Made by a program: the position numbers and the translations under genes | The notes under the pieces: model-generated | The model's database searches: none | What the model was told of the DNA's origin: nothing | What the model saw: only the letters and a program-made list of their open reading frames with translations | DNA from: Takakia lepidozioides | Lineage: Eukaryota > Plantae > Bryophyta | Direction of reading: 5' to 3' | DNA: 64,000 nucleotides | Assembly (NCBI GenBank): GCA_030704615.1 | Contig: CM060731.1 | Span: 83,142,001-83,206,000, forward strand | Part shown: in pieces, positions 28,279-61,300 of the stretch | Numbering within the stretch: the stretch's first letter is position 1 | Layout: each line of letters begins with the position of its first letter

Positions 28279-29010
28279 TCACTGGTCCCCTGGATCCATA
28301 TTCAGAAGAGTGTGTACCTCTTGGGGGCTCAACCCTGGTGCATGTATGAAGTGATGAGTTGTGGAATTACACCGGAGTCTCTTTAGGTACACGTAGTACA
28401 GATGCTTGCAAGGGCAGTATGATGCCCCCTTGTTCGCCATGATCTGGAAGTCGGTGCAATTGCAGGAGGGTAATTCTGAAATGGTGATGGTGTACACCTC
28501 ATTGCGAACAGCTGAGGCCATCTGATACACACGCCCGAAGCCTGGCGGGGGCACTTCTATCGAGCTCTAGATTGTACAGTTCATCCAAAGTGCATTCCCC
28601 ATCCTTGTCTCGTTCACTTTTGAGGGAGGTCGCCGCCTCTTCGGTTTCCCCCAACGGTGTGTAGGATGCTTAGAGCTGTCGGGTCCCATTGTTCTTGCTC
28701 TCATAGGGGTCGGTGGTGGAGGCTGTGGAAGTGGAAATGGTTGTCTAGGGACGTCAGTGCACTGCACCATCCGAAATCCTGCGGCGGTAAGGGCGTCGGC
28801 CTCAACCTGACTCAGATCGCAGCCTGGTTCCACCGGCCACACCAAGGGAGCCTCTGGCATTGTTTGTATGCCGTACTTGGGCTTTCCATACACGCAAGTC
28901 ATAATGTCGTGCCTGCAGAACCAGAACTGGGTGGTTGTCGCCTCCGCAAACTTTGCATGGACAAATCTTCCTGTAAAAGTAGGAGCACGGACAGCACCAT
29001 TTGGATTCCT
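28279..29010 (-). mobile_element. 3' part of Mutator-like transposase with C-terminal SWIM zinc finger
   Basis: YTITISELPSCNCTDF...CPCKHLYYVY is a SWIM finger. Removing the retroelement and one TSD restores the frame MIRR|NPNGAVRAPTF with the 40677-43542 part. Confidence 0.8.
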
Positions 29011-29095
29011 TGTCGTGCGCATACATATCGCACACAACTACATCGTTGTCCAAACCACACCACACATATATGCACAATAAAGTAGTCTGCCACAA
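29011..29095 (-). repeat. Terminal segment B of copy A (PPT AGGGGGGCGA at 29096-29105)
   Basis: Near-identical to 61301-61391 and 61744-61829. Confidence 0.9.
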
Positions 29096-29353
29096 TCGCC
29101 CCCCTAGCTGGTGGATAGGTCCCTCTAACTCCAGATAGCTACAAGATATAATAGCCACAGCCGTACTAAGTCCTCTATCACTGTCCCTATTGTACTCAAC
29201 TCTATCAACCAAGAGGCCGGGTACAAGAGTAGCCCCATCGTTAGTCGCCGTCTTGCAATCTGTGAACTTGAGCCAGGACCTCGTGTGTTCAAGGTCTCCT
29301 AGTAGCTGGGCCTTGCGTTTCTTGTTAGCCTTCCATAGTTGTATCCACTCCCA

Positions 29354-32300
29354 CTATCCAATGCAATGTGGACATAACCAATCCCCATCCAGAACCATCT
29401 CAAGAGGTGGAGTCAAGCATCCCATATGCCAACCTCTAGAGCATCGATCACACACCAGCATGGTGGCTGCCCCTTTAGCAGACCCACACAACATGCACCT
29501 CAAACTTGCAGATACCACTGTCAGGTTTGGGTCAATCCTGCCATCGACATTCGGAAGGTGACATGGCGCACAATTACGCACATGGTCCTTCCAAGTTATG
29601 CCATCCCGACCCTCCAAGACCAAGACGCCTGAGGGCAAGACCTCTCGAACCCTCAAAATAACACGTCCTGCAGTCACATCCACGGTCGTAGGAGCAGTCT
29701 GCTGTAGATAGACATAGTCACCAGGGTTGAATCTCCGAACCCCAGGACGATAGCCCCCACCACGTATGGTAGCATACCTCAATGTATCACGGTGTTGTGC
29801 AATGGCAAGGTTCTCGAAAGCCATGGGCATGACTTTCTTGAACAACTCTGCACGCTGCTCACATGCACGTGCCCACACGTCCGGATCGTCAAGATTAAGA
29901 ACTGTAGCAGCTTCTCTGCGAATGGATGTAGGCAAATCCGACTCTCGGCCAAAGAGAAGAAAGTATGGTGAGAAGGAGGCAAGTGATGCTTGCTTACTGA
30001 ACCTGTAGCCCATGGCTAACCAGGGTAACTGAAGGTCCCAATCTCCTAGGTGTCCCTTCTGCAAGCCATACTTGCGCAAACCCCTCTTTACTGTCTGAAC
30101 AACTCTCTCTGCCAAGCCATCGGCCTCAGGATGATCCCGAGAAGTGGTGCGGTGGTCTATCAAGGCCTTGTCACACAAAGCCTGAAACTCCCCCAAGAAC
30201 TCTCTCCCTTGGTCCGTGAGTACCTCAGCTGGAGCACCGAATCGGCTAAGCACACAATCCAAAAATGCATACGCAGCCCCCTCACTAGCCTTATCAGGCA
30301 ATGGAACCAACTCAATCCACTTGGAGAAGTGCTCCACCATCACCAACACGTACTTGTTGTGGCGCATGGTCAGTGGCAACGGCCCTGCGAAGTCAAGACT
30401 CCACCTGTAGCCCAATCCCATGATCGGAAGAGGGTGCAATTGTGGAGTAGGGGCGTTGAATGAAGCACGCACCTTGTCACACACCATGCACCTAGCCACA
30501 AATTGTTGCACCTCTGTGTGCATACCCCGCCACCAATACTGCCCCTGCTATAGACTATGAGTGCGTCGCACCCCAAAATGCCCCAACTCCTCATGGGCAT
30601 GCCGCAGTAACCGTGCCCGCTGTGTTGGGTGAGGCACAATCCTCACTCGACCATCCTCCCACACTCGGAGCAGATGTGTCCCCTCCCACTTGAACCTCTT
30701 GGCTCGTTGTAGGATCCGATCCCTCTCCTTGGCAGTCACAGTGGCTGCCGTGTCTCCAGTGCGAAGATAGTCCAAGACAGCTGAATCCTCATATATATCT
30801 TTGGCGCCACCTTGCTCATTGCTGGCCTCAGGGTCCTCAGACACTTGATCTACAATCATCCCTATTGCAGGTCCAACCTGGCCTTCCGCTGCCAAGATAC
30901 ACAGAAATGCAGATGCATGCCATCCGGGCACCATCTCCTCGTCCGTCTCACCATGCCACCGAGCTCCAGTGTCATCCTGCTGGCTCGTGCATGGATTGCG
31001 ACTCAACCCATCTGCATTGCCATTGACCAAACCCGGTCGATGCACCACCTGAAAGTCATACTCTTGAAGGATGAGTGCCCACCGTGTTCCCCGTAAGCTT
31101 GTCTGACTCCATCAACCACTTGAGTGGTTGGTGATTCGTGCTAAGGGTGAAGAGATTGCCGTATAGATAGCACCTGAAGTGTGCCACGGCCCACACTGCA
31201 GCTAAGCATTCTCCCTCATATGAGCTATACTTAGACTCTGCAACGTTGTTCGAGCGGCTAGCATAAGCCACTACAAACTTTCTTCCCTCATCATCCACCT
31301 GTGTGAGCACCGCTCCAAACCCCAGCATGCTCCAATCCGTATGCAGCTGAAAAGGACGCCCCCTGATAGGTCGTCTCAAGATGGGCGCCGAGGTCAACCT
31401 CGCCTTGAGCTCTTGAAAAGCTTGTTCTTGCTCATCTTCCCACTGCCACTCCTGGTCCACCTTGGTCAGCTTGGTTAGAGCCTTTGCAATGGCACTAAAT
31501 CCCTTAACAAACCGTCTATAATAGTTTGCTAACCCCATGAAAGCTCGAACTCGGCTCACATCCGTGGGGCGTGGAATCTGTGCAATGGACTCTACCTTAG
31601 TCTGCTGTACCCCCAATCCTCCAGGATATATCATGTGACCCAGATACTCAATCTGGTTGTGGAAAAACTTGCACTTTCCCGGATGTAACTTCAATCCGTG
31701 CGCCCTCAAGCGCTCAAATACCCCCTGAAGGTGTCTCTCATGCTCCTCCACCGTAGCACTAAAGATGATGATGTCATCTATGTAGCACCGAGCAAACTCC
31801 ACCCCTGCTAGAATCCTGTCCATGACTCTTTGAAACTTTGCAAGAGTGTTTTTAAGCCCAAATGGTAAGAACCGCCACTGGTATAGGCAATCCTTCCCGT
31901 GCTCATTGATCCCCCAGAACGCCGTCTTTTGCTTATCCGCCTCTTTGATCGGCAACAGGTGATATCCGGATCGTAAATCCAACGTGCTAAAGACCTTGGC
32001 ATGCCCAATGGCATCAAAGATCTCCTCTGGTGTCGGCATGGCATACCTATCGGACTTGGTCTGACGATTTACAGGCCGGTAATCACCGCACATACGTCTC
32101 TCCGTCCAATTGCCATAGATATCCTTCTTGGCTGACATCACTGTGGCTGAAGCATACTCTCCCCCAGATAGCTCCACCAAACCAGCCTCCCAAAGGTCCT
32201 AAGTTCTCATCTGAATCAAGGACCTCTCCATGTCACTGTATCTATAGGGTCTCCGAAAGATTGGCGTGTCAGTAGCCAATTCAATGCGAATATCTTGACC

Positions 32301-32495
32301 CTTCAGTGCTCCTAAGTCCTTCAAACTGAAGGCAGAGCAATTCCTGTAAGCCCTCAGGAACCGCCGTATACGTCGTCTCTCTCCTTCGGTGACAATGGGT
32401 CCAACATCAGGCTCCCAGTTGTCCTCCCGTGACTGCAACCTTAAGTCCAGTGGGCTTAGAGGTAGAGGACGCGTCCCGTGGTTGCTATGCCGCAA
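29354..32495 (-). pseudogene. pol: RT, RNase H, integrase, C-terminal PHD finger (copy A)
   Basis: YIDDIIIFS; LHTDWS/SSYEGECLA; HEELGH...CMVC; SLDFAG/TDQGREF/GLAER; C4HC3 PHD CMLC...CDRC...WHMGC...WLCPHC. A few stops and frameshifts are present. Confidence 0.93.
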
Positions 32496-35400
32496 CCTCT
32501 TGAGCAGTACTCTCTGCCTGCTCAGTCAATGACAAGGCCTCATCCTGCCCCATCATCTCATCCTTGAGGACCTCATCAACCCGAGAAGAATCCCCAACCT
32601 CATCCATCACAGCTGCCTTGGCTGCCAACTCCCTCTGAACCTCGAGCACCTCCCACGTGTGCCATGGATGTCTACACCCCGTGGTCCTCACCGGCTCGCC
32701 CCCACTTGCTGCCTGTACCGTCTCGGTAGGCAGAGAGATCGTCAAGGGAAGTGCACTTCGCACTCTACGTTGTTCAGCCATAGCCAAGCTGATAATCCAG
32801 GTCAAGCAATTGAGATCCATTGCTTGCCCCAACACCTGACGACGTGATGCCTCTGAAAGAGAAGGCACCGCCGTGGTCCCAGTGGAAAACCCCATAGCCC
32901 GCTCTCGCTCGTCGGCATTAGGCTCCAATAACTGCTGCAACTGAGCATCCCACAGGAGGCCAGGTCCACCATCCCGAAAAGCATGGGATCCTGGGAAGCT
33001 GAGCAGTGTAGGTAATGCTGCTCGTGGTTGACCCACCCTATTGACCACTGCCAAAGGCGAATGGTCATCGTGTCTCACACGTTGAGACTGCCTCCCTGTG
33101 TCTAAAATGTTGTCCACTGTGAGGTGTGTTGGCCGCTGCACGCTTGAGCAGTGCGGGTGGCATCAAGTTAGTCCACCATAACCGTGGACGATGAGCCCGT
33201 GACCCCACTGCAGCTGCATCGAGCAACACTGCTGACCCAAGCCACGACCGGACTTGATGCACACTGGCCATCACCCGGGCCCGAGAATCACCCATCAGTG
33301 GCACATTCTCCAAGATGTATGTTGGAGATACAGCTTGATGAAGCTGCAAGTGACGCAAAATCCGCACCATCTCCCAAAACAGACCCGTCCTCGAGTCTCG
33401 CAATCCATTGCTATGCCCGGCTGATGAATGCCCTTGGCAGGGCCAACCTGCCACTACCAGATCAATGGAGCCAACCTGCCCCAAATCATGCGCCCCCAGC
33501 AATGAAATGTCTGCTGGCAAGGCTTGTTGGTATCCACAAACTGCAGACACTGGCAACAAATCAGGGTACTGCTGTACCAACTAAGCAACATGACGCAGTG
33601 AGACGCGTCGTGCAGTCTCATCCCTCTCCACATACAGGTAACGTCGAACTCATACACCTGCCTGCAGCACTGCAGCCAATCCAGTGCTGATCCCGCCAAA
33701 CAAGTCCAGAAGGCATATGCCTTCATCCGGGCACTGCCACACAAGAGGTGTGGTGTCCAATGGCGACAACTGAAGTGGTCCTGGTGCAATCACCGCACTC
33801 TCCTCTTCTTCTGACGGTACGAAGGCCTCTACCCAGGCTTGTTGCACCCGTCCATCAGCAGCCTGCTGCAAATCCTTGCTCGTTCCCCACAATGGAGTGT
33901 GAGCAACCATGGCAGACAACTCCGTCGTACCATGCATGTCATCCTGCTCTGTTGGAGGTGGCACATCCTCTGCATGGGCATTGCCCTCCAGCAACTCCCC
34001 AGGCCAACTAACTACAACTATGAAGGTGGCTAGTGTTGGCATCTTGCCCCGTTGGGCAGCCGCAATACCCCCAATGAATGTCACAGGGAGCTGTGCATGA
34101 CGACCATCCCTTGATTGCCATCCAGGCCTGTAGGATGCTGACTCCTCCCAAAAGTCCAGGGTGAAGCCCATGGGGTATAACACTGCCCCACCAACAAGGA
34201 CATCGTAAGAGACCGCGTCTGTCACAATGGCCTTGGCTCGCATCACTGAGCCATCTCTAGGATGATCCGGCTGCAGTCTAATGCCCAACTGATGCCGTGT
34301 CATGCGCCGAGCCTGCTCTGATCCTCCCAGAGATGTCTGTATCTGGAAAGGACAAGGCTCCATATCCGCCTCCATGAGGCCCAAACCTGCAATAGCAGCT
34401 CTGCCCAACATCAGTGGCTGAGCTCCCGAGTCCAACAAGACCCGAAGTGGCCGGTACTTCTTGCCTGCCAGTCCACTCAATGAGAAAATGCCATCCTGGT
34501 TGTCTAACAAGACAACTCCAGGTGTCACCATGGCGCGCTCAAAGGCTGGCCTAGCTGGCAGCTCCGTCAACCTGGCAGCTGCAGCTTGCCATGGCGCAGC
34601 CGTGGCAGTCTTGACCCTCAAATCCGAGGATCCCTCTGCACTACACCTTCCACTAACTCCGCAGAAGATGAAGTGACCTCCCCACTCTCACAGAGTGTTG
34701 CTGCTAGTCTGAACACTGCAGCTGGTCTTACCCCCGGCGTCGCAATCATGGTTGCCGAGAACAGTGGGGCTTGACACACAGAGGTGGCTGCCCCCAATAA
34801 CACACCGGCTGCACTAGCCTTGGCAGCAGTTGTCAGTGTTGCACGTGTAGCTCTCCCCAATGGCATAGTAACCTCCGCCTCGGTAACAGTTGGGCGAGAA
34901 CTAGGTGCCATGGATGGCGTCGACACAGTCTCCGCCAATGTGAATGACTGAGGAAGCCTCGCCTGACGGCTTGCCTCCCCACGTTGTGGATCCAATTCCA
35001 CCTCTGCACCTCGTGGCTCAGGAACTCGTGCTGCTCCTCGAGTCACGGCTGCAGCAGACTCCACCTGCACTAGTGGTAGTGCTGCTCCGCACATGAATCC
35101 CATGCCTCCCATATCTCCTCCCTCAGGAGCAGGAGGTGGACCATCCCACCTGGGAGCCGGTACCACCTGAGCTGTAGCCATGGCAGCGAGCCTCTGCTCT
35201 AGCTGCTGAAGCCGGTTGGCCATGCCTTGGTCAACACCCTGACCTCCGCGTCCTTGGCCATGTTGAGCTTGCCCTTGGCCTGCACCTCGTGCCCGGCCAC
35301 CTCGTCCTCTCTGGGCTGGTCCACCTCGCCCCCGGCCACCATTGTTCCCTTGGAACTGGCCTGGGCGCAACTCAGGATGCAAGTCATAACACTGGGCATC

Positions 35401-36661
35401 TCCATGCCCATACTTGCCACAATGCCCACACTGCAACTGTGCAGCTGTGCTTGTGCCGGCCTTTTGCCACTCTCTGGGCAATCTCTCTTGACATGGGGTC
35501 CTCCACATGTCCAACATATCACCCCTGGTTGTTGTTGGCTTGCAAAAGATGCTACTGGCCTCTGCACCCGAGGTCGCCTGTAAACTCCATGAAATTTGGG
35601 TTGGGAAACCTTGGCCCCCTGACCACGCTGTTGGGCAGTCCCTTGTGCCTGTGGGCTGGCAGCTGCGCCTCGTGCAGGCATGTCTTTGCCAAATCCAATG
35701 GTAACAACTCGCTCCTCCACCATGTTGAGCTCAATCCGCTCAGCCAGCAGAAACACATCTGCTAATGTGGGTTGGGCTGCTTGTAACAGGGTTGCATCTC
35801 GCACCCTTCTCCTGAGCTCCTTGTCCAAAATTCCATACCAGAACTGGATTGCCTGAGCTTCAGTAACCCCTTGGGTCACACTTATCAAGCGCCTCATACG
35901 AGTGTAGGCCTCTCGCAAGCTCTCAATGGGTTTGCGCTGGAAGTCTTGCAAATTTCGCAGCTTCTCTGTCCGTATACCTTGGTAGTTCCTCCGCAACTCC
36001 TGGAAGAACTCCACCACCGGGTTGAATCTAGGCACATGTGTTGTAGTCGTGGCAGGAGGAGTAGTAGCACCTTTTGAACTGGTACCACCTGAGAAGTACC
36101 GGCACTACTTGTTCCACTACTAGTGCTAGCAGTGGGAGATATTGGTACTGATGCAGCTACTGGTCGCGTCGTGCCTCGAGTAATGGAGACGTAGTCAGGT
36201 GACCAATACGTCCTCCACTCCTCAATCTCTGCTTCATGTCCTCGCCTGAACTCGTGGTAATCGTCCATAGGCGGGCCTTCCAAATGCTGGAACAGTCCCT
36301 TCCACGCCATGAATGGGGTGAATAGCTGTGGATTGCGCATCTGCTGCAAATCACACCAGCTGTCGAACTCCTGGATAAAGTCATCCAACTTGATTGTGCC
36401 CACAGCTCCAGAGTACCTACGAGGCCCCTTGGTAGCTCCATACATCTTCTCCATGTCGTCCCACAACAATGGCGAATGAAACTGCACACCTGTTGATGAA
36501 GCCTCTGAGTTTGTGTCTGACTCTGCACTAGTTGAGGGTGGAGGTGAAGGTGGTCTGAAACGAACACCTCGTCTGGTGAACCCACTCTCACTGTTACTGC
36601 CTGTAGCCGTACTCCCCTCAGAACCCCTAGGTAACTCCGTGATGACACTCACAATGTACAC
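32485..36661 (-). pseudogene. gag-protease-C5 DNA methyltransferase ORF (copy A), frameshifted
   Basis: Gag core, CWTCGGPHVKRDC and CGHCGKYGHGDAQC knuckles, VLLDSGAQ protease. MTase motifs: LDLFGGISTG, AGWPCQ, ENV, RAHRPRLWWTN, LGQAMD. Confidence 0.9.
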
Positions 36662-37190
36662 CTCCCCTACGTGACACTATAAGGCTCTATTACTGATTCT
36701 AATAGTGACACGGGTGGGCACCTGTTGCAGTTTAAGGGTCATATCCCAGTGGCTCAGGGCACCTGCACCTACATCCACCGCAAGAACTCATATGGTTGGC
36801 TGGTCATCAACCCAGTCTCACCATAGAAGAAACACTGGTGGTCTTGCTGGTCATCACTCCAGCCTCACCACCGACAGCATACTCTAGGATTGACCGGTGA
36901 TCAAATCCGGCCTAATCCCTATGAAAGCAAGTGCCCACACAAAACCAACATGGTGCACAGTCAAGCATGCAGGTGTTGGGGGGGATCCAAACACAAGAAA
37001 TCAAAACATCAACACCCCAACACCAAAATCCATCTGCAATGCTGATCTTGCAGAATATCCCAGCCCAAAACCCCGGACTGACTGGCCTCCACCAAGAGAG
37101 GCTTTGGCAACTACAAGTACAAAGTAATGAAAATAGTAAAGAGAGGGAGGGGAAGAATAGAAGCCCGACCAAGCAAGATCTAATCCTGAT

Positions 37191-37940
37191 CTATGCTATC
37201 AACTGCCAGACTTCTCTCAAAGTGCCTCGCTCTGCATGATGGTAAGGTGTAGGCGGTACATCTATGTCCAGAAACCTGCCACTAACCTTGTCCCAAGCTA
37301 CAGTAGCTCGCTCTAACCAACCCTCCTCCTCTTTCTGCCTGGTAGAGACAAAGCAATACTCCCCTATCTCCCGCTCACTGAACACTAAAGAAAACAAAGG
37401 TAGGGTCTGATAATCTCTCAACTCGAAAGCTTTGAGACGGTTGTGGGTGTTCTCATTGCGGATGACTGCATCTCCTTCAAGCAAAACAAACTTGTCATTG
37501 CTAATGAACCCCCGCTCATGATTGCCTTGTGCAGAGCGTGTCCGGCTGCAACCATGTCTGATTGCACAAACTTGTGTAGCTCTTGCTCCTCTGCTCCAGT
37601 ATACCACGGCCTTGTGGCTGAACACCTTGGTACCCGGGGCTGTCTTTGGCTGTGTTCCAAGCCTAGCTTTTACCCACTTTGGTATTTCACCTACAGCTGC
37701 AGAACTGCTGGCTCCAACAGAGTTCTGACTGTCCAAAGCGATATTGAGACCCTCAACGCCAACTACAACAGTTTGTTGTCCACTGCTAATGTCTGACTCC
37801 CAGTATGCAATCAACTCGTCCAACTGTTCTCCACTCAAATCAGTCTGAGTTCCTTGGGAAACATAAATCTTGTCCCCTTGTGTGCACAGGCTAAGAGACG
37901 AGACCTGCCCTTCAATTACGTCCTCGTTTTCCCCAGCCAT
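37191..37940 (-). CDS. Extra upstream ORF of retroelement (249 aa, unknown function), copy A
   Basis: Intact, same length and near-identical to 52442-53191. Confidence 0.75.
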   Translation of the reverse strand: MAGENEDVIEGQVSSLSLCTQGDKIYVSQGTQTDLSGEQLDELIAYWESDISSGQQTVVVGVEGLNIALDSQNSVGASSSAAVGEIPKWVKARLGTQPKTAPGTKVFSHKAVVYWSRGARATQVCAIRHGCSRTRSAQGNHERGFISNDKFVLLEGDAVIRNENTHNRLKAFELRDYQTLPLFSLVFSEREIGEYCFVSTRQKEEEGWLERATVAWDKVSGRFLDIDVPPTPYHHAERGTLREVWQLIA

Positions 37941-40350
37941 ACAAGGAGGACATCCACAGATTTGTCTCTCATATAGACCAGAACAGGTTCTAAAAACAGA
38001 ATTGTGGATCTTTCACGGCACACTCACACTCTAAAAATTCCATAGATTTTTAGCAGAGTCCCAAAAACAAAAACCCTAAACCCTAAACAAAAACCAGGTC
38101 TAGATAGGTAGATATTCCCTTTCTATAGCTATCCCCTCAAAAACTGAGTCAAACGGAGCTCATTTGACAAAGATGTGAACAATTTGGCTTTAAATCATTT
38201 AAATTAGATCAAAAGGGCCCTTTTTTTTTTTTTTTTAAAGGTTTTCGAATTTAAAAATTTAAAGTTACACCCAAAATATCTGGTAATTGGTTCCCGGTCC
38301 CCTAAGTTCTATATGGTTTCCTAGGTTCCCTGGCCACGTGCCCTATAATTCCTAGGATTTCAGTTGTGTTTACAAATGCACCCCCCACAGCTCTTGGTTA
38401 CCAGTGACCTGCTCTCCTCCAGTCGAGATCCGTAGCTATGCCGAGCCTTAATCCTTTGCACCAATATTCCCAACAAAAACAGGAGCACTTACAATGCAAC
38501 CCCGGAAAGCACCAGAGCTAACTAGCTTTGATCAAGAACGCTTACAGCCCTTCATGCGTGCTGATTTTTCAAGGTGGCAACAACAAATCTGCTATCACTG
38601 ATTGTGTAAGCCTTTACATGGAGTTGGCACAGGCTGCCCCCAAGTTCAGGATTGTAAACATAGACCGAGCAGGTCGTGTAGTGAGCTGGGCCCCTTCAGC
38701 TCATATCTCGCTCATACACCAAGTGTCACCTGGTGAGTCCACAGTCTCCCACTCTCATGCTCTCCTGCAACAAACACAACCTTGAGGTTCAATCCTCCAA
38801 AACCTGAGGATCGCCAGCCTGGGAGGTTGACACTGTCAGAAAGCGCCCCTCCCTTCCAGCAAATGGCCTAAGATGTGGTGACCTCGTCAATCCTTCCCTA
38901 GACTGCTCTTGCTTGGCCTTTCTCACAGCTGCCTGCACCTCTCAATCTGTGTGCCCATCCCCCTTCATAATGAGTATGACACACCCATCATCGTGCACAA
39001 CCTTTCATGCAAATGAGAGGGCATATACAATGTCCTTTGGGGTCCTCTAGTTCCAGTCTGGCACCTCATGGCCCATTCCAATTTCCAGGACATGAACACC
39101 ATGCAGAATGTCCGCTATGAGGGCGTTTGCGTAGGGTCCCAAGGGGGATTTTGCGCCAGCTTTGTATGGAATGAGGGCCAATGGTGTCACAGACTTCAGC
39201 CACACGTCAATAATCTCCTGCGAAACCCGCCAGGTGCTGGAACTTGATCTATCATGACCTTGTAATCTTCATACAAGCAAGTGACCCATGTCTTCCGAGG
39301 TTGTTCTTCTCCCAACGGCCGTGCAGCAAAATGGTTTGCCAAACAAATTCCGCTTGCTCCCTGAAAGGTTCAGACCCGCCAACTGCAAAGATATAAGTCG
39401 CCCTGCACCCGAATCTCTCTCCCCGTCGGTGGAGGCCTCCTGCATAGACTCGTCAGCTGTGGGCGTTCGACTACCAGGGCTGCCTGATATACTGGCTTTC
39501 AAAGCCTTCTTGCCCCCCTTTCAGGTTCGTTGCGGTTTGTTAGCCTCCCTCAGCAGCTGTTCAGCTTCATCTGCTCCTCTGGCGGCGGCTGCAGCGGACA
39601 CATTAGCTTGAACAAGGTGCCTGTGTGCCTGTGTTTCCTTGTCATGTAGACTCTTGGCTGTTGATGCGCTTGAGAACTCGTTGTGTTCCTCCATTTCTTC
39701 CAAGTGTTGGTACGATGTCGGGTTTGCAATCAAGCCACCAGGGGCAGTTTGGATTGGAAAACTGGCTGAATGACTTTAGTTGTTTCATGTTGAACGCTGT
39801 CACCTCCGTGAGCTCACTCACCCAAGTCAGCATCATGTTGGGTGTGGAGAGGATCAGCTTTATCTCCTGTCGTAAGTACTAAAGCACATTCGCTTTGCAG
39901 GTTGCAACGCGCCCTGCTGCTCGCTTAGCTCCACACTCCTGCGCATTTTCTCCTTTTCTCCGGCAGGTGCAGCAGCAGCACCTCCACCAGAGGAAGCCAC
40001 CACAACCAGGGATGACGCCACCCCAAACTGTTTGCACTTCGTGATCCAGCCACTGCCAGCCACTCCCGACTGTTTTGGGTCCGAATCCAAAATCTTACAC
40101 GAGTCTCGTCTCCCTCCGTCCAAGTGAAAGAGAGTAGGGAATTGCGGGGCCAACTATCAAAGTCTTCAACCTCCCCACCTCTTGGTTTTCAAACTCACGA
40201 GCAGAGACGACAACTAGATCTACGCGCACAGCCCATGGCAACAGGAAGGCCAGATGGACTCCTGCCCCAAGATATATATTATAATAGTGCTAAAACAAAC
40301 ATTGTATCTAGCTTAGCACTAGAAAACTAGATAGCCTCATCTCTCTCGAG

Positions 40351-40672
40351 TGATAAGAAAGCTAAAGGACACACTGTTCGCACAAGAAACATGAAATCCC
40401 TCAACATCACTCTTTCAGATAATAGTCGAGCCAGGGGCACCCCAAGCTATGGGGACTCCACCCCACAACAACCTATCCTCCCATCATAAGTACACTCAGT
40501 TCTAAACGATGAAGGAGCTCGGTCACGCAGGCTCAACTCGAGAGAGATGACGCTGTTCAGGTGTCAAACTAAACTTGACACCTGACTTAACACTTGGCTT
40601 AAATCCAAGTGTTAAATACAAATAACTAGCTTTATTCTAGTTAGTTTCACACTGTGCTTGTTTAACTTGACA
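40351..40672 (-). repeat. Terminal segment A of copy A (self-complementary PBS at 40336-40350)
   Basis: Homologous to 49989-50345 and 61394-61743. Reads TGTCAAG...TTATCA on the minus strand. Confidence 0.9.
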
Positions 40673-40676
40673 TCCT

Positions 40677-43542
40677 CCTTATCATCTCTAAACAACGTTG
40701 CCGTGTATCCACTCGAATTGCGGAACACCTGCCTCGAAACGACGGCTTTGTGCGAGCAATTCTCCACTGTGACACAGACACAGTCGTCTCCACAATGGCT
40801 TGGCCATACTGCATAATAGCGGGCGGAATCTGGGGCAAGCGAGCGGTGGGAATTTCTCGCACGGAATCCCCGCTTGAAGGCGATGGCGATCTGGAATTTC
40901 TTGGGCTTCCACTGCTGGAAGACACATTGTGTGGCAACATGACGGGCCCTCGAGGTGCTGTCCGAATGTTCCTATCGGATCTCCAGGAATCCTCTTCACA
41001 CCCAGGTTCCTCTTCAATCCTCCGCCTCACAGGGCGAGTACGTACGTCCCCCTCTAGGTGCTCACCTCTGTGGTGCAGAGGCGTCCCTTTGATCTTCTCT
41101 CGCAATGTTGTCGTCCATTTCAGTGGATTCTTCGACCTCGAAGTTGTTCGTACCAACAATTCCTCCCTGTCTGGCCCAAAGCCCCATTGTTTCCCGCTCA
41201 GGAACTTGAGTACATGGCTTGCTGCATGGTTGCTTTGTCGATGTCCTCCGTTGTGGCCGTCACTACGTCCACCAGATGTGCGGCAGAACACGCTCGCCAG
41301 GAGGAGTGCACTGATTCTGCCATATTCGTGTTCGGCATGTCTGTGTCGGAATCCAAGCACCGCTCCTACAAGGATACAAACAATGGTGAGGAACCAATGG
41401 AAAGGTCCGTAATAGAAAGACAATTGCACGAAAATGACAGCATCATACCTCCCGCATGTACTGTCCGAACTGTCGATACCGGAAATGCCACCACCCCAAC
41501 CAGCTGTGCAAGGCTCCCAGATTGGTTGTCTTCACTGCACCTGACGTGTTCCACCAAGCCTTGATGATAGCAAACTTAACCTCCACATCATCAAATGTGG
41601 GTGCATCCTTCCACGCCGTACAAAGGACACGGTGTTCAGCTTGGAATGAGCTAGCAACAAATTTGGTAGTGTAGTGAGATAGACTCTGCATCCAATGGAA
41701 TCCACAGGATCTCTCTTTCCCCTCCATTGGAACATTGGGGTCCTCACCGTACACACGCCGCACCGCTGCCCAGTTGGCCTGAGCGTTGTCTGCCATGAAT
41801 CCCCTGAAATTGGGCTCTGGCAATCCCGCCCTTGCCATCTGCTCGTTTATGCCCTCCCACAGATGCATCTCCAACTATGTGTCCTCCCCTTTCATCTCGC
41901 AGATTGCAATCGTCATGAGCCTCTTGGAGTGATAGTCATAAACATGCGCACCCATAGTCACCCACTGATGGTTTGTAATTCGCTTGAAGTGATCAAACAT
42001 CACCCAAGCATTCGACAAGTTTCCAGTTGTCATGCGAGTGACCAAGTCGACTCCACTCCCAGGCCCACACGTCGACATTTTAAAAATGTAACAACGATCG
42101 GATTCGCTGCCTTGCCCTGGAAACCTGCTACCTTGGATGTAGTCATATCCAGTCATTCGTTTCACCTCCAGGATTGAGTGCATGTCCGACCCCCGGCCGA
42201 ACTCCTGCTTGCAAGATACGATGTGATTCCGCACATTCGGACTACAAACGTGCGAGACGGACTCCAACAGGTCAAGCATCTCCTCTTCGTTCAAGGGCAC
42301 TCGGTCTGAACCATCTTCAAACATGATTTTGCCAAGAGCAATCTTGTGGGCTGCCTTCAGCTGAATCTGCTTTGGTCTGGCTCCGGGGCTCAATTTCACC
42401 TCCTCTTTTATGATGTCGTGTGCTTCTTGCACAACCTCACGCATGTTGCCTCTCGCCAAGGGGTGGCAGTGGACCCCAACATGTATGCAAGCTCTAGTCA
42501 AGTCCAGGAGCAAATGGATAACGTAATATTGCTTGGCTCTGCACATGGACATGCACGTCGGTGGTTCTTTGCAATGTGCGCACTTGAAAGTACCCGCAGG
42601 AGTTTGGCTGGAGACAATGAATGGATGATACGTTGTGCCAGTCCAATCCGTCTCGTTTCTCCGCCCTTCTTTGGAGAGAAAGTGGAAGCAGGCAGGATTG
42701 AGGCACCTCAGCTTCCCCGCACAGAGGACGTATCGTACACGAACACCATCAGCAATTTTCGTGCTACTGGTCTTCGTTACACACCAGGGGTGTCCATCAT
42801 GCTTTCGATCCATGTCTGTTAACATCCCTGAGGCTTTGTTTGAGGAAGTAACAGGTGGAAACTCGAAGATGACATTGCCATCGACTTCGGGAGGCAGATA
42901 CGTTACCTTCCTGACTGGAAATTTGGCATAGTCGAGAGCAGCCAGCTCGGAGCGAGAACCATCAAGGTGATGTTGCCGTAGGAACTGCACAATGGACCGG
43001 GTTGGAGTTATGCTCGAGGGTACATGCGTAGCACCTGCAGAGACGTCCATCTCGGATTTGAACGACCGTGTGGAGGACATGGGGACCTCAATGCACTCAT
43101 CTTCATCGTCGGAAATGTCGAATACGTCCACACGAGAAGCTATGGAGGGTCTTGACGGTTCAGGTCGGGAATGATTATCGTTGCATACCTCTCTATTGGC
43201 AGTGGCCGCCTGTCGGTTTCCGGACTCCTTTGTGGATGGTGTGGGCAGCGACTGATTCGGAAAGGGAATGGGCATTCCCACAGCTCGGTATAGGATGGTG
43301 TCTGATGGGGGTACGTGCCATTTGATTCCGCAACCTCTGTCGTTACCTAGCATGACAATGGTCTCGTCAACCTGTCCAGGAACATCCTTTCTTTCTTCTT
43401 CCAAATAAATTGTGCCCGGTTTGAGCTTGAATTTGGAACAAAGGTAAGTTTCAGTCACTCTGCAAAGTCCTCCCTTGTTTGGGATCCAGGCTCTCCCAAG
43501 TTGCAGAGGACAGCAAACTATAGCGTAGGAATTCGGAGCCAT
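40677..43542 (-). mobile_element. 5' part of Mutator-like DDE transposase with GCM/WRKY-like Zn DNA-binding domain
   Basis: DGHPW...CAGKLRCLNPAC...CAHC...C...HVGVHCHP is GCM-like. Catalytic motifs: WVMFDH (D), FMADNAQA (D), CGFHW (CxxH) and, after intron 41366-41448, PNTNMAESVHSSW (E). One in-frame TAG at ~41875. Confidence 0.8.
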
Positions 43543-43821
43543 CGAAGACCGCACGAAGTTGGCAAGTGTGAGGTTCAGTATAGCGACAGACCAAGGCTCA
43601 CAGGCACCTAGCGGAGTCCATGGACGATTGGAAGTCGCACATTGAAGTGGAAAGTATTGTTGTTAGCAGGTACACAATTGAGCAAGCATGAATCGAGGGT
43701 GAGGACGGTGCGACACATGAATAAGATGGAAGATGGAAATATGGAAATATGTTTACAAGAAATGAGCTGAAAAGCTCACAAGGGTTCAGTAGACTGACCC
43801 TGGGACCTACATGGACTAGGA

Positions 43822-45689: not shown

Positions 45690-46049
45690 TTCACCCGTCT
45701 TGGTGGGGCAACAAAGATAAAAGAAAAAGGTGGGGGGGGGGGGGGGGGGGGGAGTGACTAAGCACCACGGGCTCAGTCACTCCCCCCCCCCCCCCCGCCC
45801 ATTTTTTTTTTTTTTGTTTCCTGATCTCTCCCTCTCTGTCCCTCTGTCCCTCTCCCTCTCTCTCTCTCCCTCCCTCTTTTTTTTGTTGTTCACAAAAGTA
45901 AACAAACCACAAGGGAGAGAGGGTGCAGAAAAAGTTAAAAGATTGTACTCATAAGACGTTGTTTGCCGTAGCCTTGTGGCCATTGACCCCGCGCCCAGTT
46001 TGAGCGGAAACAAAAGGGACATAACTTGCCTTTGTCAGGGGCTGACGTT

Positions 46050-48610: not shown

Positions 48611-48739
48611 AAACAAAAAATCCACACTGATAGCAAACTGCCAATTCCCAGTACAGAGGGAGACAGAGGGAGAGAGGGGGCAACAATGAAAAAAAATGGG
48701 TTTGGGGGGGGGGAGGTCAGATGGTGGGATCAGCTGCAG

Positions 48740-49988: not shown

Positions 49989-50345
49989 TGTCAAGTTAAA
50001 TAAGCACAGTGTGAAAACAGCTAGAATAAAACTAGTTATTTGTATTTAACACTTGGATTTAGGTCAAGTGTTAAATCAGGTGTCAAGTTTAGTTTGACAC
50101 CTGGTCTGTCTTATCTTCACGAGAGCGGCAGTCGCGCGGCTCATCTCTCTCGAGTTGAGCCTGCGCGACCGAGCTCCTGCATTGTTGAGGACTGAGTGTG
50201 CTTATGATGGGAGTGTAGGTTGTTGTGGGGTGGAGTCCCCATAGCTTGGGGTGCCCCTGGCTCGACTTCTATTTTAAAGAGTGATCTTGAGGGATTGCAT
50301 ATTTCTTGTGTTGAGAGTGTGTGTCCTTTACAAGTTTGTTTATCA
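49989..50345 (+). repeat. Terminal segment A1 of copy B
   Basis: Direct repeat of 61394-61743. Confidence 0.92.
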
Positions 50346-50361
50346 CTCGAGAGAGATGAGC
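50346..50361 (+). promoter_or_regulatory. Putative self-priming primer-binding site
   Basis: ACTCGAGAGAGATGAGC (50345-50361) is the exact reverse complement of 50139-50155 inside A1. There is no TGG tRNA-type PBS. Confidence 0.7.
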
Positions 50362-52441
50362 TCTTACCTGTGAGTGCAAGGTAGGAGTTGAGGGTTAGCA
50401 CTTGTATGATTACCTGTGTGAGAGTAGTGCTTAGTTTAAGAAGCTTTAAAATATATATATATATATATATATGCAGGTTTCGATCAGCGTTGGTTCTGGC
50501 ATAAGGCCGCCGGGCAGGACGGAGCTACACTGCATGGAAGCAGCCTTCGTTTTGGTCAGTGAGGAGATATCATGGTGGAGCAGCAGGATGATGCGCAAAT
50601 GTAAGGAAAACTGTGTCTGTTGGTAGCTGCTGACAACCGCAACTCTGTCCCTGGACTTCTTCTCCGGAGGTGGAAGCCTGTGTGCAGCGTGCATGCAAGA
50701 GTGTGGTTGTGACAGGGGAACAAGCGCTTGCGGTTGCATTACTACTGCAAGTTGGGCACTCGGTGCGTCGCTATAACTGCAATTGTACAGGAGCACTGTG
50801 AGAGGCAGATTGTTCTGCAGCCTTGCTATACCTGGTCAGTCCAATGGTGACACATCCATACCTTGTTAAAGCAATATGGACAGTTGTCGATGAGGACGGC
50901 TCTATGAAGGACACTGCGAGCTAAGAAGGGCTCGGGTACAAAAGCACACACTGGAGCGTTTAAGCAAGTTAGGGCGGGAAAAAGAAAAACAGGCCCAAAT
51001 AGCCAAGCACATGAAGTAGTGAATGTTGATGGAAGAAACCTGTGACACTCCCATTTTGCTGGAGGAGATCGTTGATTAATTGATGTCCCCGGAGCTTCAG
51101 GTGCAGGCCCTACAATCGCTGGCTAACAAGACTGATTTACAAGCAAAACCTGCAGGGCAATCTGCCGAGAGCCTCATCTGCTTCTCGGAGGGGTTTCCGT
51201 AAATGCCCAGCTTGTGCCCTGCCTGGGCAATAGGGGGAATCCCGCCTTCAGAACTTGGCTTTGGTGTACCAGAGAACTCTGCAACCTTTGGCGTTCCTTC
51301 TTTCCCAGGCCCTTGTGCCGACCTTCTCCAATGTGTCCTTGTCTCTCTCACCATCTGCTGCCTCGGAAAGCTCGCAGTGGAGACCTGCTTGCGGGCTGTT
51401 TTCTGGATTTAGAGTGGGTTTGAAGTATAGAAAAGAACTTGGAGATTACAGTGGGCAGGTCGCAGCCGGTGCGTCCTTGACGTGGAAGGCCACAACGGAG
51501 AGGAATGTGGTAGCCAGGGCTGCTGGAGATGCCCCAGAGTCAGAGGTCGAGATTGTTCCTGAGGTCACCATCCCAGCCATAGTTTCCCTCAAGTCAAAAG
51601 CATAATTGTTAAAGAAGAAGGCTAAACGATTGGAGCTTCGAAGGAAGAGGCTGGTGCGCAAGCGCAAGTTAAGGAAGAAAGGCCAATGGCCTCCTTCCAA
51701 AATGGCCAAAATCAAGAATGTATAGGGCCTCAGGAGGGTTCAAGGATAAGAAGAAAAGAAAGTTATCACGTCTGCGGGAGGTCCAACAGGTCCAAGGAGC
51801 ACACGTACAACACCACAGTAGAACCACAGACATCAAAAAAAAAAGCAGCTCAATTCTCAAACTTCACACACAACAGGTGTCGCAATCAACGGCCAAGCTC
51901 TTGTATGCTCTGCTCTGCTCCTGTTGTGCTGAATGTTGGTGAAGTGAAGCTGTGGTTCCGATGTGGCAGATGTGTTGTGCAAGTCCAGCAACCATCCACG
52001 AATCGTTCGATTGCAGGCCGCCTGTCCATAAGCCATGAGGGTGTTGCGCAGTGCATCTCTTGATCTGCTCTTGAAATCGCCCCTACCTGGACGAACTACC
52101 TGGACGTGTTGGGAACTCGTAGGTGACTTGGGAGCAGTTATAATGACAAAAGCGTTTTGGTGTTAAAAAAAAAAAAAACAAAGCCTTTTTGATCTAATTT
52201 AAATGTTTAAAGAGCCTGGTTGGTCATATCTTTGTCAAATGAGCTCCGTTTGACTCAGTTTTTGAGGGGATAGCTGCAGAAAGGGGAAATCTACCTATCT
52301 AGACCTGGTTTCTGTTTTTGGGACTCTGCTAAAAATCTATGGAATTTTTAGAGTGTGAGTGTGCCATGAAAGATCCACAATCCTGTCTCTAGAACCTGTG
52401 CTGGTCTATATTAGAGACAAATCTGTGGATGTACTCCTTGT

Positions 52442-53191
52442 ATGGCTGGGGGAAATGAGGACGTCGTTGAAGGGCAGGTCTCTTCTCTTAGCCTGTGTAC
52501 CAAAGGGGACAAGATTTATGTTTCCCAAGGAACTCAGACTGATTTGAGTGGAGAACAGTTGGACGAGTTGATTGCATATTGGGAGTCAGGCATTAGCAGT
52601 AGACAACAGACTGCTGTAGTTGGCATTGAGGGCCTCAATATCGCCTTGGACAGTCAGAACTCTGTTGGAGCCAGCAGTTCTGCAGCTGTAGGTGAAATAC
52701 CAAAGTGGGTGGAAGCTAGGCTTGGAACACAGCCAAAGACAGCCCCGGGGACCAAGGTGTTCAGCCACAAGGCCGTGGTGTACTGGAGCAGAGGAGCAGG
52801 AGCTACACAAGTTTGTGCAATCAGACATGGTTGCAGCCGGATACGCTCTGCACAGGGCAACCACGAGCGGGGGTTCATCAGCAATGACATGTTTGTTGTG
52901 CGTGAAGGAGATGCAGTCATTCGCAATGAGGACACCCGCAACCGTCTCAAAGCTTTCGAGTTGAGAGACTATCAGACCCTACCTTTGTTTTCTTTAGTGT
53001 TCAGTGAGCGGGAGATAGGGGAGTATTGCTTTGTCTCTACCTGGCAGAAAGAGGAGGAGGGTTGGTTAGAGCGAGCTACTGTAGCTTGGGACAAGGTTAG
53101 TGGCAGGTTTCTGGACATAGATATACCTCCTACACCTTACCATCATGCAGAGCGAGGCACTTTGAGAGAAGTCTGGAAGTTGATAGCATAG
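52442..53191 (+). CDS. Extra upstream ORF of retroelement (249 aa, unknown function), copy B
   Basis: Intact and conserved with copy A. Confidence 0.75.
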   Translation: MAGGNEDVVEGQVSSLSLCTKGDKIYVSQGTQTDLSGEQLDELIAYWESGISSRQQTAVVGIEGLNIALDSQNSVGASSSAAVGEIPKWVEARLGTQPKTAPGTKVFSHKAVVYWSRGAGATQVCAIRHGCSRIRSAQGNHERGFISNDMFVVREGDAVIRNEDTRNRLKAFELRDYQTLPLFSLVFSEREIGEYCFVSTWQKEEEGWLERATVAWDKVSGRFLDIDIPPTPYHHAERGTLREVWKLIA

Positions 53192-53709
53192 ATCAGGGTT
53201 AGATCTTGCTTGGGCGGGCTTCTATTCTTCCCCTCCATCTCTGTACTATTTTCATTACCTTGTACTTGTAGTTGCCAAAGCCTCTCTTGGTGGAGGCCAG
53301 TCAGTCCGGGGTTTTGGGCTGGGATATTCTGCAGGATCAGCGTTGCTGCTGGATTTTGGTGTGGGGTGTTGATGTTTTGATTTCTTGTGTTTGGATCCCC
53401 CCCAACACCTGCATGCTTGACTGTGCGCCATGTTGGTTTTGTGTGGGCGCTTGCTTTCATAGGGATTAGGCCGGATTTGATCACCGGTCAATCCTAGAGT
53501 ATGCTGTCGGTGGTGAGGCTGGAGTGATGACCAGCAAGACCACCAGTGTTTCTTCTATGGTGAGGCTGGGTTGATGACCAGCCAACCATAGGAGTTCTTG
53601 CGGTGGATGCAGGTGCAGGTGCCCTGAGCCATTGGGATATGACCCTTAGACTGCAACAGGTGCCCACCCGTGTCACTATTAGATTAGTACTAGAGCCTTA
53701 TAGTGTCAC

Positions 53710-56700
53710 GTGGAGGAGGTGCACATTGTGAGTGTCATTACGGAGTTACCCAAGGGTTTTGAGGGGAGTACGGCTACAAGCAGTGACAGTGAGAGTGGGT
53801 TCACAAGACGAGGTATTCGGTTCAGACCACCTTCACCGCCACCTTCAACTATTGTAGCGTCAGACACAGACTCGGAGGCTTCATCAACAGGTGTGCACTT
53901 TCATTCGCCATTGTTGTGGGACGACATGGAGGAGATGTATGGAGCTACCAAGGGGCCTCGTAGGTACTCTGGAGCTGTGGGCACAATCGAGTTGGATGAC
54001 TTTATCCAGGAGTTCGACAGCTGGTGTGATTTGCAGCAGATGCGCAATCCACAGCTATTCACCCCATTCATGGCGTGGAAGGGACTGTTCCAGCATTTGG
54101 AAGGCCCGCCTATGGACGATTACCACGAGTTCAGGCGAGGACATGAAGCAGAGATTGAGGAGTGGAGGATGTATTGGTCACCTGACTACGTCTCCATTAC
54201 TCGAGGCACGACGCGACCAGTAGCTGCATCAGTACCAATAGCTCCCACTGCCAGCACTAGTAGTGGAGCAAGTAGTGCTGGTACTTCTGAAGGTGGTACC
54301 AGTTCAAAAAGTGCTTCTCCTGCCACGACTACAACACATTGCCAAGATTCAACCCGGTGGTGGAGTTCTTCCAGGAGTTGCGGAGGAACTACCAAGGTGT
54401 ACGGACAGAGAAGCTGCGAAGTTTGCAAGACTTCCAGCGCAAACCCAGTGAGAGCCTGCGAGAGGCGTACACTCGTATGAGGCGCTTGATAAGTGTGACC
54501 CAAGGGGTTACTGAAGCTCAGGCAATCCAGTTTTGGTATGGAATTCTGGACAAGGAGCTCAAGAGAAGGGTGCGAGATGCAACCCTGTTACAAGCAGCCC
54601 AACCCACATTAGCAGATGTGTTTCTGCTGGCTGAGCGGATTGAGCTCAACATGGTGGAGGAGCGAGTTGTTACAATTGGATTTGGTAAGGACATGCCTGT
54701 ACGGGGCACAGCTGTCAGCCCACAAGCACAAGGGACTGCCCAACAGCGTGGTCAGGGGGGCAAGGTTGCCCAGCCCAAGTTCCATGGAGCTTACAGGGGA
54801 CCTCAGGTGCAGAGGCCCGTGGCATCTTTTGCAGGCCAACAGCAACCAGGGGTGATATGTTGGACATGTGGAGGACCCCATGTCAAGAGAGATTGCCCAG
54901 AGAGTGGCAGAAGGCCGGCACAAGCACAGCCTGCACAGTTGCAGTGTGGGCATTGTGGCAAGTATGGGCATGGAGATGCCCAGTGTTATGACTTGCATCC
55001 TGAGTTGCGCCCAGGCCAGTTCCAAGGGAACAATGGTGGCCGGGGGCGAGGTGGACCAGCCCAAAGAGGACGAGGTGGTCGGGCACGAGGTGCAGGCCAA
55101 GGGCAACCTCCACATGGCCAAGGACGCGGAGGTCAGGGTGTTGACCAAGGCATGGCCAATCGGCTTCAGCAGCTAGAGCAGAGGCTCGCTGCCATGGCTA
55201 TAGCTCAGGCGGTACCGGCTCCCAGGCGGGATGGTCCACCTCCTGCTCCTGAGGGAGGAGATATGGGAGGCATGGGATTCATGTGCGGAGCAGCACTACC
55301 ACTAGAGCAGGTGGAGTCTGCTGCAGCCGTGACTCGAGGAGCAGCACGAGTTCCTGAGCCACGAGGTGCAGAGGTGGAGTTGGATCCACAACGTGGGGAG
55401 GCAAGCCGTCAGGCGAGGCTGCCTCAGTCATTCACCTTGGCGGAGACAGTGTCAACGCCATCCATGGCACCTAGTTCTCGCCCGACTGTTACCGAGGCGG
55501 AGGTTACTATGCCATTGGGGAGAGCTACACGTGCAGCACTGACACCTGCTACCAAGGCTAGTGCAGCCGGTGTGTTATTGGGGGCAGCCACCTCTGTGTG
55601 TCAAGCCCCCTGTTCTCGGCGAACCATGATTGCGACGCCGGGAGTGAGACCAGCTGCAGTGTTCAGACTAGCAGCAACACTCTGCGAGAGTGGAGAGGTC
55701 ACTTCATCTTCTGCGGAGTTAGTGGAAGGTGTAGTGGCAGAGGGATCCTCGGATTTGAGGGTCAAGACTGCCACGGCAGCGCCCTGGCAAGCTGCAGCTG
55801 CCAGATTGACGGAGCTGCCAGCTAGGCCAGCCTTTGAGCGCGCCATGGTGACACCTGGAGTTGTCTTGTTAGACAACCAGGGAGGCATTTTCACTTTGAG
55901 TGGACCGGCAGGCAAGAAGTACCGGCCACTGCGGGTCTTGTTGGACTCAGGAGCTCAGCCACTGATGTTGGGCAGAGCTGCTATTGCAGGTTTGGGCCTC
56001 ATGGAGGCGGATATGGAGCCTTGTCCTTTCCAGATACAGACATCTCTGGGAGGATCAGAGCAGGCTCGCGGCATGACACGGCATCAGTTGGCTATTAGAC
56101 TGCAGCCGGATCATCCTGTAGATGGCTCAGTGATGCGAGCCAAGGCCATTGTGACAGACGCGGTCTCTTACGATGTCCTCGTTGGTGGGGCAGTGTTATA
56201 CCCCATGGGCTTCACCCTGGATTTCTGGGAGGAGTCAGCATCCTACAGGCCTGGATGGCAGTCAGGGGATGGTCGCCGTGCACAGCTCCCTGTGACATTC
56301 ATTGGGGGTATTGCAGCTGCTCAGCGGGGCAAGATGCCAACACTAGCCGCCTTCACAGCTGCAGTCAGCTGGCCTGGAGAGTTGCTGGAAGGCAATGCCC
56401 ATGCAGAGGATGTGCCACCTCCAGCAGAGCAGGATGACATGCATGGTACGGCGGAGTTGCCTGCCATGGTTGCTCACACTCCGTTGTGGGGTACGAGCAA
56501 GGATTTGCAGCACGCTGCTGATGGACGGGTGCAACAAGCTTGGGTAGAAGCTTTTGTACCGTCAGGAGAGGAGGAGAGTGCGGTGATTGTACCAGGGCCA
56601 CCTCAGTTGTCGCCATTGGACACCACACCTCTTGTGTGGCAGCGACCGGATGAAGGCATATGCCTTCTGGACTTATTTGGCGGGATCAGCACTGGATTGG

Positions 56701-60900: not shown

Positions 60901-61037
60901 TGTGGGTCTGCTAAAGGGGCAGCCACCATGCTGGTGTGTGTGATCGGTGCTCTAGAGGTTGGCATATGGGATGCTTGACTCCACCTCTTGAGATGGTTCC
61001 GGATGGGGATTGGTTATGTCCACATTGCATTGGATAG
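57905..61037 (+). CDS. pol: RT, RNase H, DDE integrase, PHD finger (copy B; several small frameshifts)
   Basis: Same motifs as copy A. The indels fall at different positions in the two copies, so a consensus is open. Confidence 0.9.
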
Positions 61038-61290
61038 TGGGGAGTGGATACAACCATGGGAGGCTAACAAGAAACGCAAGGCCCAGCTACTAGGAGACCT
61101 TGAACACACGAGTCCTGGCTCAAGTTCACAGATTGCAAGACGGCGACTAACGATGGGGCTACTCTTGTACCCGGCCTCTTGGTTGATAGAGTTTGAGTAC
61201 GATAGGGACAGTGATAGAGGACTTAGTACGGCTGTGGCTATTACTTACATCTTGTAGCTATCTGGAGGTAGGGGGACCTATCCACCAGCT

Positions 61291-61300
61291 AGGGGGGCGA
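61291..61300 (+). promoter_or_regulatory. Polypurine tract
   Basis: AGGGGGGCGA immediately precedes segment B in both copies. Confidence 0.75.

Follow-up and report, generated by a model that had tools for sequence, protein, structure and literature searches.

Ends inside the long terminal repeat of a Takakia lepidozioides Ty3/gypsy retrotransposon suggest integration at an internal palindrome

We analyzed a stretch of 64,000 nucleotides from the bryophyte Takakia lepidozioides (GenBank assembly GCA_030704615.1, contig CM060731.1, positions 83,142,001 to 83,206,000 of the forward strand), called the window below. It holds two copies of a Ty3/gypsy retrotransposon. Copy A begins with a segment that we name A, ends with a segment B and has no terminal repeat (form A...B), whereas copy B ends in B-A-B (form A...BAB). 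Copy A is a clean insertion, and we propose that the DDE integrase of the element cuts a palindrome inside the long terminal repeat (LTR) and not the ends of the cDNA, and that the A...B form is a likely primary product and a predicted dead end; we put the probability of this reading at about 0.7. The part of it that makes the internal palindrome the integrase attachment site is very probably right, and primary integration is the probable main source of A...B copies in general.

The 5' terminus of copy A, TGTCAAGTTAAA at 40672, is the start of segment A (322 bp), and its 3' terminus, GCGCACGACA at 29011, is the end of segment B (about 29095-29011, 85 bp), which adjoins a G-rich polypurine tract (PPT); both were read from junction print-outs. 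A sensitive search of the window found no second A or B at either end. The preliminary description of this DNA had claimed such ends, with A only on the 5' side and the PPT plus B only on the 3' side, the same termini as in copy B, and a target-site duplication of TCCT. Self-BLAST, the junction print-outs and the sensitive search bear this out: the two copies have the same termini, and TCCT is present on both flanks of copy A. One 4-bp match of this kind has a chance of about 1/256, and copy B and the relatives described below also carry 4-bp duplications.

When the element and one TCCT are taken out, the interrupted host gene reads as a stop-free frame with 285 amino acids before and 147 amino acids after the junction. 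Four homologues (P0218, P0231, P0240 and P0241) are collinear with it on both sides of the insertion, with residue numbers contiguous across the gap. The downstream piece found 54 proteins in a full HMMER search, 16 of which match both sides at a loose threshold, some of them by chance; unlike that search, word-index searches with the same C-terminal piece gave no match. The earlier claim that removal restores the frame of a Mutator-like element (MULE) is upheld by the open frame and the collinear homologues, but the host gene has further stops and frameshifts besides the insertion, and the MULE label is weak: it rests on a weak SWIM match in one homologue (E = 0.032), with no Pfam call, and on motifs that we take to be those of MULE transposases.

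Copy B lies in the opposite orientation and is 95.3% identical to copy A over 9.27 kb in the self-BLAST of the window. Its first and last bases are those of copy A, but its 3' end reads PPT-B1-GC-A2-B2. The duplication at its flanks is supported by an empty paralogous site with a single CTTA near 49410 of the window. Segment A is about 83% identical between the copies, with gaps, and the next 2.1 kb of copy A are unrelated to the corresponding 1.8 kb of copy B. Compared over 38218-40672 and 49989-52175, copy A looks like a mosaic, with the 95% identity setting in at a common A-tract and increasing in the 3' direction; the likely cause is that the template was switched from one subfamily to another. 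Both subfamilies have two adjoining inverted repeats in the first 116 bp of A (40557-40617; 50044-50103), upstream of the predicted transcript start.

The genomic ends of these copies appear to differ from the ends that reverse transcription would set. B stands directly after the PPT, a position that makes it the probable start, or first part, of U3. Directly after A comes a stretch of 15-17 nt that is complementary to A positions 151-167 in copy B. The 17 nt observed compare with 12 nt or fewer in 1996 of 2000 random windows, and the 4 larger draws are probably homologous sites themselves. The letters differ, but the complementarity is kept in the window family, in two families from metagenome contigs (22 and 49) and in the relatives L147 and L001; it is weak in the decayed copies L020, L032, L006 and L054. 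This is the layout that the accessible text of PMC6317226 gives for the self-priming elements Tf1/Sushi and Tcn1, and it suggests that the complementary stretch within A marks the transcript start and acts as a self-primer. Segment A would then comprise distal U3, R and U5. With the PPT before B and the self-priming site after A, the true LTR, as read from sequence, is B+GC+A, and the genomic ends lie inside it, at ACGACA^GC^TGTCA.

In each of the 25 junctions printed, two bases separate the arms of a near-palindrome at the B/A joint (GC 14, AC 4, GT 4, AT 2 and TC 1); for 7 of the 25, the motif used to find them already assumed a spacer of this length. Transition variants of the GC spacer account for 10 of the 25, and L149 carries the palindrome as well, beyond this set. 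The starts of U3 after the PPT differ between families (TTGTG, ATACATG, TTGAGGG), and the internal palindrome is conserved across LTR sequences that are otherwise unrelated. The GC spacer is lost at integration and is absent from both genomic ends. The A/B joint is imprecise. It varies by 0-8 nt in family 49, where the letters match the primer side; in L007 it holds a 20-nt insert with a PPT remnant at its end, and in L148 it is truncated. Remnants of the primer side or the PPT side are present at the A/B joints of L007, L053, L062, L075 and L148. Variable joints with such remnants are marks of the end joining of linear cDNA, known from circle junctions.

Relatives were collected with an alignment of 23 pol proteins, which retrieved the best 80 of 574 matching metagenome stretches, 66 viral contigs and 7 genome contigs; L085-L146, at about 30% reverse transcriptase identity, lie outside the examined set. 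An exact B pattern had no match in the metagenome contigs. Families 22 and 49 contributed 46 loci bearing B, which were merged to 38 distinct 3' ends by joining 8 same-locus pairs (L026 and L040 by their common flank). By eye, these ends were classed as 16 in which PPT-B runs directly into flank, 13 BAB, 2 in which BA runs into flank, and 7 unclassifiable. L018 was kept unclassified, since up to B it matches L019 at 99.4% identity and the two may represent one locus that was later disrupted. At the 5' side, 10 of 10 relatives begin at A (L063 was read separately), or 12 of 12 with the window copies, and B upstream of A was found in none of the 9 relatives tested. Seven relatives are complete: five are A...B (L020, L029, L032, L054, L058) and two A...BAB (L022, L049). 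Exact 4-bp duplications flank five of these seven, and seven of nine complete copies with the window included; L049 has one mismatch. L005 and L006 have AACG in common, but with an identity of no more than 97.5% they were left out of the complete copies. Within BAB copies, A1/A2 and B1/B2 are equally diverged (7.7/6.2% and 7.7/7.4%), as LTRs are. Further families have the same junction (L001, L002, L008, L013, L015, L147, L148 and L149), with a BAB end in L148 and PPT-B followed by flank in L004. That the split ends are a family trait and no one-off, as had been suggested from the window, is strongly supported: identical breakpoints occur again in two more families, and the palindrome junction in at least seven other loci.

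Short-read contigs of the source organism add to this picture. In run X1, 7,470 contigs matched the 3' end of copy B, with summed depths that are not a copy number. A 559-nt contig of single-copy depth, found in X1 and X2 (one sample), spans the PPT and all of B up to its final base, after which it continues as unlike sequence.

Several observations on these data stand apart. An X1 contig at about 5x single-copy depth joins 61824 to 61305, linking a B cut short at an internal CA to the start of B; this B-B joint is outside what the model set out below explains. In another contig 61181 is joined to 61394, such that A starts after internal element sequence and 8 other letters, possibly one copy inside another at the same 5' breakpoint. 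L045 (3246-3878) reads PPT-B-GC-A and then a primer site and an inverted piece of A, which may represent a complete LTR that was rearranged, or a copy in tandem. In L065 and L079, A is followed by one or two additional bases. In the complete A...B copy L058 an 8-bp near-duplication sits at 4125 and 13189. L147, L148 and L149-L152 come from assemblies of prokaryote genomes but are contigs of eukaryotic retrotransposons; those bins are likely contaminated. The circular assembly of L147 was considered as evidence of real circles and rejected, since collapsed repeats give the same result.

Our model for these structures is as follows. The RNA of a BAB copy would start in A1, prime itself and be reverse-transcribed in the normal way to a linear BA...BA. 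A staggered cut, CA^GCTG on both strands, would leave both ends with CA-3' and a 5' overhang of 2 nt, as in the usual processed ends. If the left site alone were cut, and the free U5 and U3 ends were joined before or after strand transfer, the product would be A...BAB, which keeps R at both ends and could transpose again. A 1-LTR circle, or cuts at both sites, would yield A...B without a 3' R; because that R is missing, A...B copies are predicted to be sterile in cis. Failure to join U5 and U3 would leave the two ends in which BA meets flank. More speculatively, the left site may be preferred because it is double-stranded before plus-strand synthesis finishes the right LTR. Foamy virus integrase provides a precedent for such a cut: in vitro, it cleaves both strands of a palindromic junction behind CA (reported in the accessible text of PMC1180852). 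LTR finders would be expected to miss A...B copies, which have no repeats.

The preliminary description had derived copy A from a 1-LTR circle or from recombination between B1 and B2 of a BAB form; both are possible for this copy, and to them we add linear cDNA cut at both internal sites. The recombination route deserves the closest comparison. Every insertion would start as A...BAB, with the internal site real, and A...B would arise later by recombination or single-strand annealing between B1 and B2, direct repeats that lie only about 440 bp apart in copy B. That process would yield the exact sequence observed, duplication included, and no young A...B insertion has been caught in the act. It is nonetheless hard to square with the share of A...B, about half of the ends (16 versus 13) though B measures only 85-176 bp, and the longer A1/A2 pair, which spans 10 kb, should presumably have removed most full-length copies in the same manner. 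Nor are A...B copies older than BAB copies, with mean terminal branches of 0.042 and 0.049 (p = 0.56, a weak test on 18 copies, the misaligned L075 left out). We consider later recombination an unlikely general source. Far less credible is the idea that the assembly collapsed BAB at the 3' end of copy A, or that this end is a one-off rearrangement: the PPT-B-flank junction there comes from the assembly sequence alone, but 16 independent ends of this kind occur in other assemblies, five of them in complete copies and alongside intact BAB copies, and the short-read contig described above has the same kind of end in the source organism.

Two further proposals concern the source of BAB. According to PMC4157794, PAT and Ngaro elements are defined by repeats in the arrangement A1...B1A2B2. 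A circle of the present element might likewise be recombined into the genome at the B/A junction, with a tyrosine recombinase provided either in cis or in trans. We find this very improbable and the route largely refuted: no tyrosine recombinase matched in a first 16 frames or in another 34 that came from the two copies and L147, whereas an integrase motif is present, the 4-bp duplications are of many sequences, the GC spacer is missing at both ends, and the ends are TG...CA. A preformed 2-LTR circle cut at random at either internal site is scarcely tenable. The A/B joint does resemble a ligated U5/U3 junction, and 2-LTR circles can be integrase substrates in retroviruses (PMC4372172, in part), but random choice predicts ABA...B as often as A...BAB. 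None of the 5 complete relatives ending in B, and none of the 12 5' ends, is ABA (binomial p = 2e-4 at an expected share of 13/16, and 0.03 at one half). A symmetric 2-LTR-circle model is insufficient for BAB because this mirror product was never seen; a circle with biased choice of site is possible and falls under the explanation that we prefer, cleavage at the internal palindrome.

A number of points weigh against that explanation. All steps of the mechanism are read from integrated copies, and the sequence of copy A is identical under primary insertion and under later recombination. The relatives amount to 38 ends from the best 80 of 574 matches, and their loci were retrieved by pol, a sampling that does not cover solo AB units. 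L058 is without a 4-bp duplication, its 8-bp near-duplication having 3 transitions. L065 (4553-4840) and L079 (3695-3985), the BA ends next to flank, could be ordinary LTR ends. The related L068 and L069 may have a common A/B joint, which could have been inherited. Trees of the 1.5 kb upstream of B are star-like, but the B-only copies L046, L071 and L076 group together with local support of 0.80, where a strict dead-end model predicts otherwise; a grouping of three B-only copies, 3 of 3, is within chance.

Copy A is a Ty3/gypsy retrotransposon (Table 1). The domain order gag, protease (PR), DNA methyltransferase (DNMT), reverse transcriptase (RT), RNase H (RH), integrase (IN) and PHD finger keeps the Ty3/gypsy order, the best PDB matches of RT are Ty3 (E = 1e-63 to 1e-65), and a DDE integrase, TG...CA ends and a 4-bp duplication are likewise those of Ty3/gypsy. 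The two complete direct LTRs of that group are lacking, as copy A has no terminal repeat and copy B is A...BAB. Frameshifts and stops occur in both window copies. The methyltransferase of the relative L147 is Dnmt3-like, with DNMT3A/3B as best PDB matches (E = 2e-6). Relatives with an integrase plus a PHD finger are numerous; the nearest named one is from Coleochaete scutata (74%), volvocine algae are at 49-50%, and no Klebsormidium nitens sequence was among the matches of the relative protein searches. Upstream of gag, a frame of 258-273 amino acids is open in both copies (37191-38012, minus strand; 52415-53191, plus strand) and had no match in Pfam or Atlas.

Table 1. Features of the window, with positions counted from its first nucleotide
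Feature	Positions	Strand	Basis or remark
Copy A, whole Ty3/gypsy element, A...B form, 11,662 bp	29011..40672	-	self-BLAST, junction print-outs
TCCT duplication, left copy	29007..29010	+	
TCCT duplication, right copy	40673..40676	+	
Host MULE-like transposase gene, part before insertion	40677..43662	-	
Host MULE-like gene, part after insertion, with SWIM-like finger	28303..29010	-	
Segment A	40351..40672	-	TGTCA at genomic 5' end, TTATCA at its close
Stretch within A complementary to the site after A	40536..40554	-	
Predicted self-priming primer-binding site, adjoining A	40333..40350	-	18 of 19 nt complementary to 40536-40554, last A base counted
5' region only in copy A, A-tract at its end	38238..40332	-	no similarity to equivalent 1.8 kb of copy B
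Open frame of 273 amino acids, no known family	37191..38012	-	counterpart in copy B
gag region, split over several frames	34618..36676	-	Retrotrans_gag E 0.003 (weak)
Protease region, LLDSGA motif	33650..34687	-	Pfam match in relative L147 only
C5 cytosine methyltransferase domain, in pieces	32485..33700	-	Pfam DNA_methylase in both copies
Reverse transcriptase and RNase H	31056..32198	-	closest solved structure Ty3
Integrase, H2C2 finger, D,D(35)E core, C-terminal PHD finger	29354..31111	-	
Polypurine tract of copy A	29096..29105	-	
Segment B	29011..29095	-	ACGACA at genomic 3' end
Copy B, A...BAB form	49989..61829	+	duplication CTTA
Copy B, A1	49989..50345	+	
Copy B, polypurine tract	61291..61300	+	
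Copy B, B1	61301..61391	+	
Copy B, GC	61392..61393	+	
Intact internal palindrome ACGACA-GC-TGTCAA, copy B	61386..61399	+	candidate integrase attachment site
Copy B, A2	61394..61743	+	
Copy B, B2	61744..61829	+	

Around the target of copy B (45700-49990, 61830-62030) the window holds duplicated or inverted pieces of another repeat (46006-46575 against 49463-48894; 49148-49414 against 49722-49988). The frame at 48771-49514 is LINE-like by impression, with no Pfam match. Degenerate arrays of tandem and inverted repeats lie at 13118-14594 and 20565-21192.

Several known systems resemble parts of this element. In circle junctions of the IS3 family a DDE enzyme acts on two abutted ends with a short spacer; the flanking DNA supplies that spacer, which is variable, whereas the present element is a retroelement with a fixed spacer, GC. 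Foamy virus and HIV-1 LTR-LTR junctions share the staggered cut after CA in a palindrome and the processed ends, but their palindrome is the ligated U5/U3 joint and their provirus canonical (PMC1180852, PMC4372172, both in part), whereas the site proposed here is templated inside U3 and the provirus permuted. In comparison with canonical Ty3/gypsy elements of the self-priming Tf1/Sushi/Tcn1 type, as the accessible text of PMC6317226 presents them, the likeness extends to PR-RT-RH-IN, PPT, D,D(35)E, TG...CA, a 4-bp duplication and predicted self-priming; here no complete LTR stands at either end, the genomic ends differ from those defined by primer-binding site and PPT, and a DNMT is added. The chromoviruses among them have in common with our element the complement to the 5' LTR, with its putative use as a primer, but the chromodomain is replaced by a PHD finger. 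PAT, TOC, Kangaroo and Ngaro match copy B in the split direct repeats (PMC4157794, in part; for PAT and Ngaro also the accessible text of PMC7192593) and differ from it in that a DDE integrase and a protease, variable 4-bp duplications, a PPT and a self-priming site are present here and no recombinase was found. Two candidates were set aside: Phygy/Selgy, with a tRNA-Trp or tRNA-Ala primer-binding site and no extra polyprotein domain in the text at hand of PMC6317226, is unlike the self-priming, DNMT-bearing element here, and Troyka, with CG...CG ends, 3-bp duplications and a range limited to animals (PMC12440569, in part), is unlike it in ends and duplications.

The closest system is KnitGypsy-Dnmt3 of K. 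nitens (de Mendoza et al. 2018, PMC5890265), which combines Gypsy domains with a Dnmt3-related methyltransferase in the polyprotein. The legend to its Fig. 4c gives DIRS-type repeats on Gypsy domains, A-coding-B-A-B as in Fig. 1e. As far as the accessible text of that paper goes, the BAB layout on a Gypsy-Dnmt3 element is already published; copy B and 13 relatives have it, and copy A is its A...B variant. That text, with which we compare by description, contains no target-site duplication, internal cut site, A...B form, priming mode or mechanism. The A...B form, the internal site and the mechanism are all absent from the full-text literature that we searched, whose scope did not extend to subscription papers, Repbase reports and figures. 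Gypsy-7a_cRei and REM1 of Chlamydomonas are, by description, Gypsy elements with a PHD finger (PMC9940879, in part). Gypsy-7a_cRei is active, with LTR subparts and a left LTR without the last 8 bp of the right (legend to Fig. 6A of that paper); as a lead, this 8-bp difference may be the same layout with a very short B.

In retroviruses and LTR retrotransposons the rule is that integrase uses the DNA ends left by reverse transcription, circles being for the most part side products; it has long been asked whether circles, or palindromes within the DNA, can be genuine substrates too. Genome sequence here points to a lineage that integrates only via an internal palindrome, conserved across families with unrelated LTRs. 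The finding would supply a defined 14-bp substrate, and a mechanism for the DIRS-like repeats that were described on a Gypsy element in 2018 without one. It also predicts that full-length copies with no terminal repeat form a large class, which structure-based annotation would miss. We lean, with some reserve, towards a wider view: in an ancient clade of Ty3/gypsy elements with a PHD finger, from green plants and algae, the integrase attachment site would have shifted away from the cDNA ends and into U3, to a conserved palindrome, all proviruses of the clade would be permuted, A...BAB, made by end joining, would be the sole fertile form, and about half of the insertions would be sterile A...B copies invisible to LTR finders. 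If true, these would be LTR retrotransposons with internal cleavage as their normal route, and a model for the way in which the split repeats of PAT and Ngaro function.

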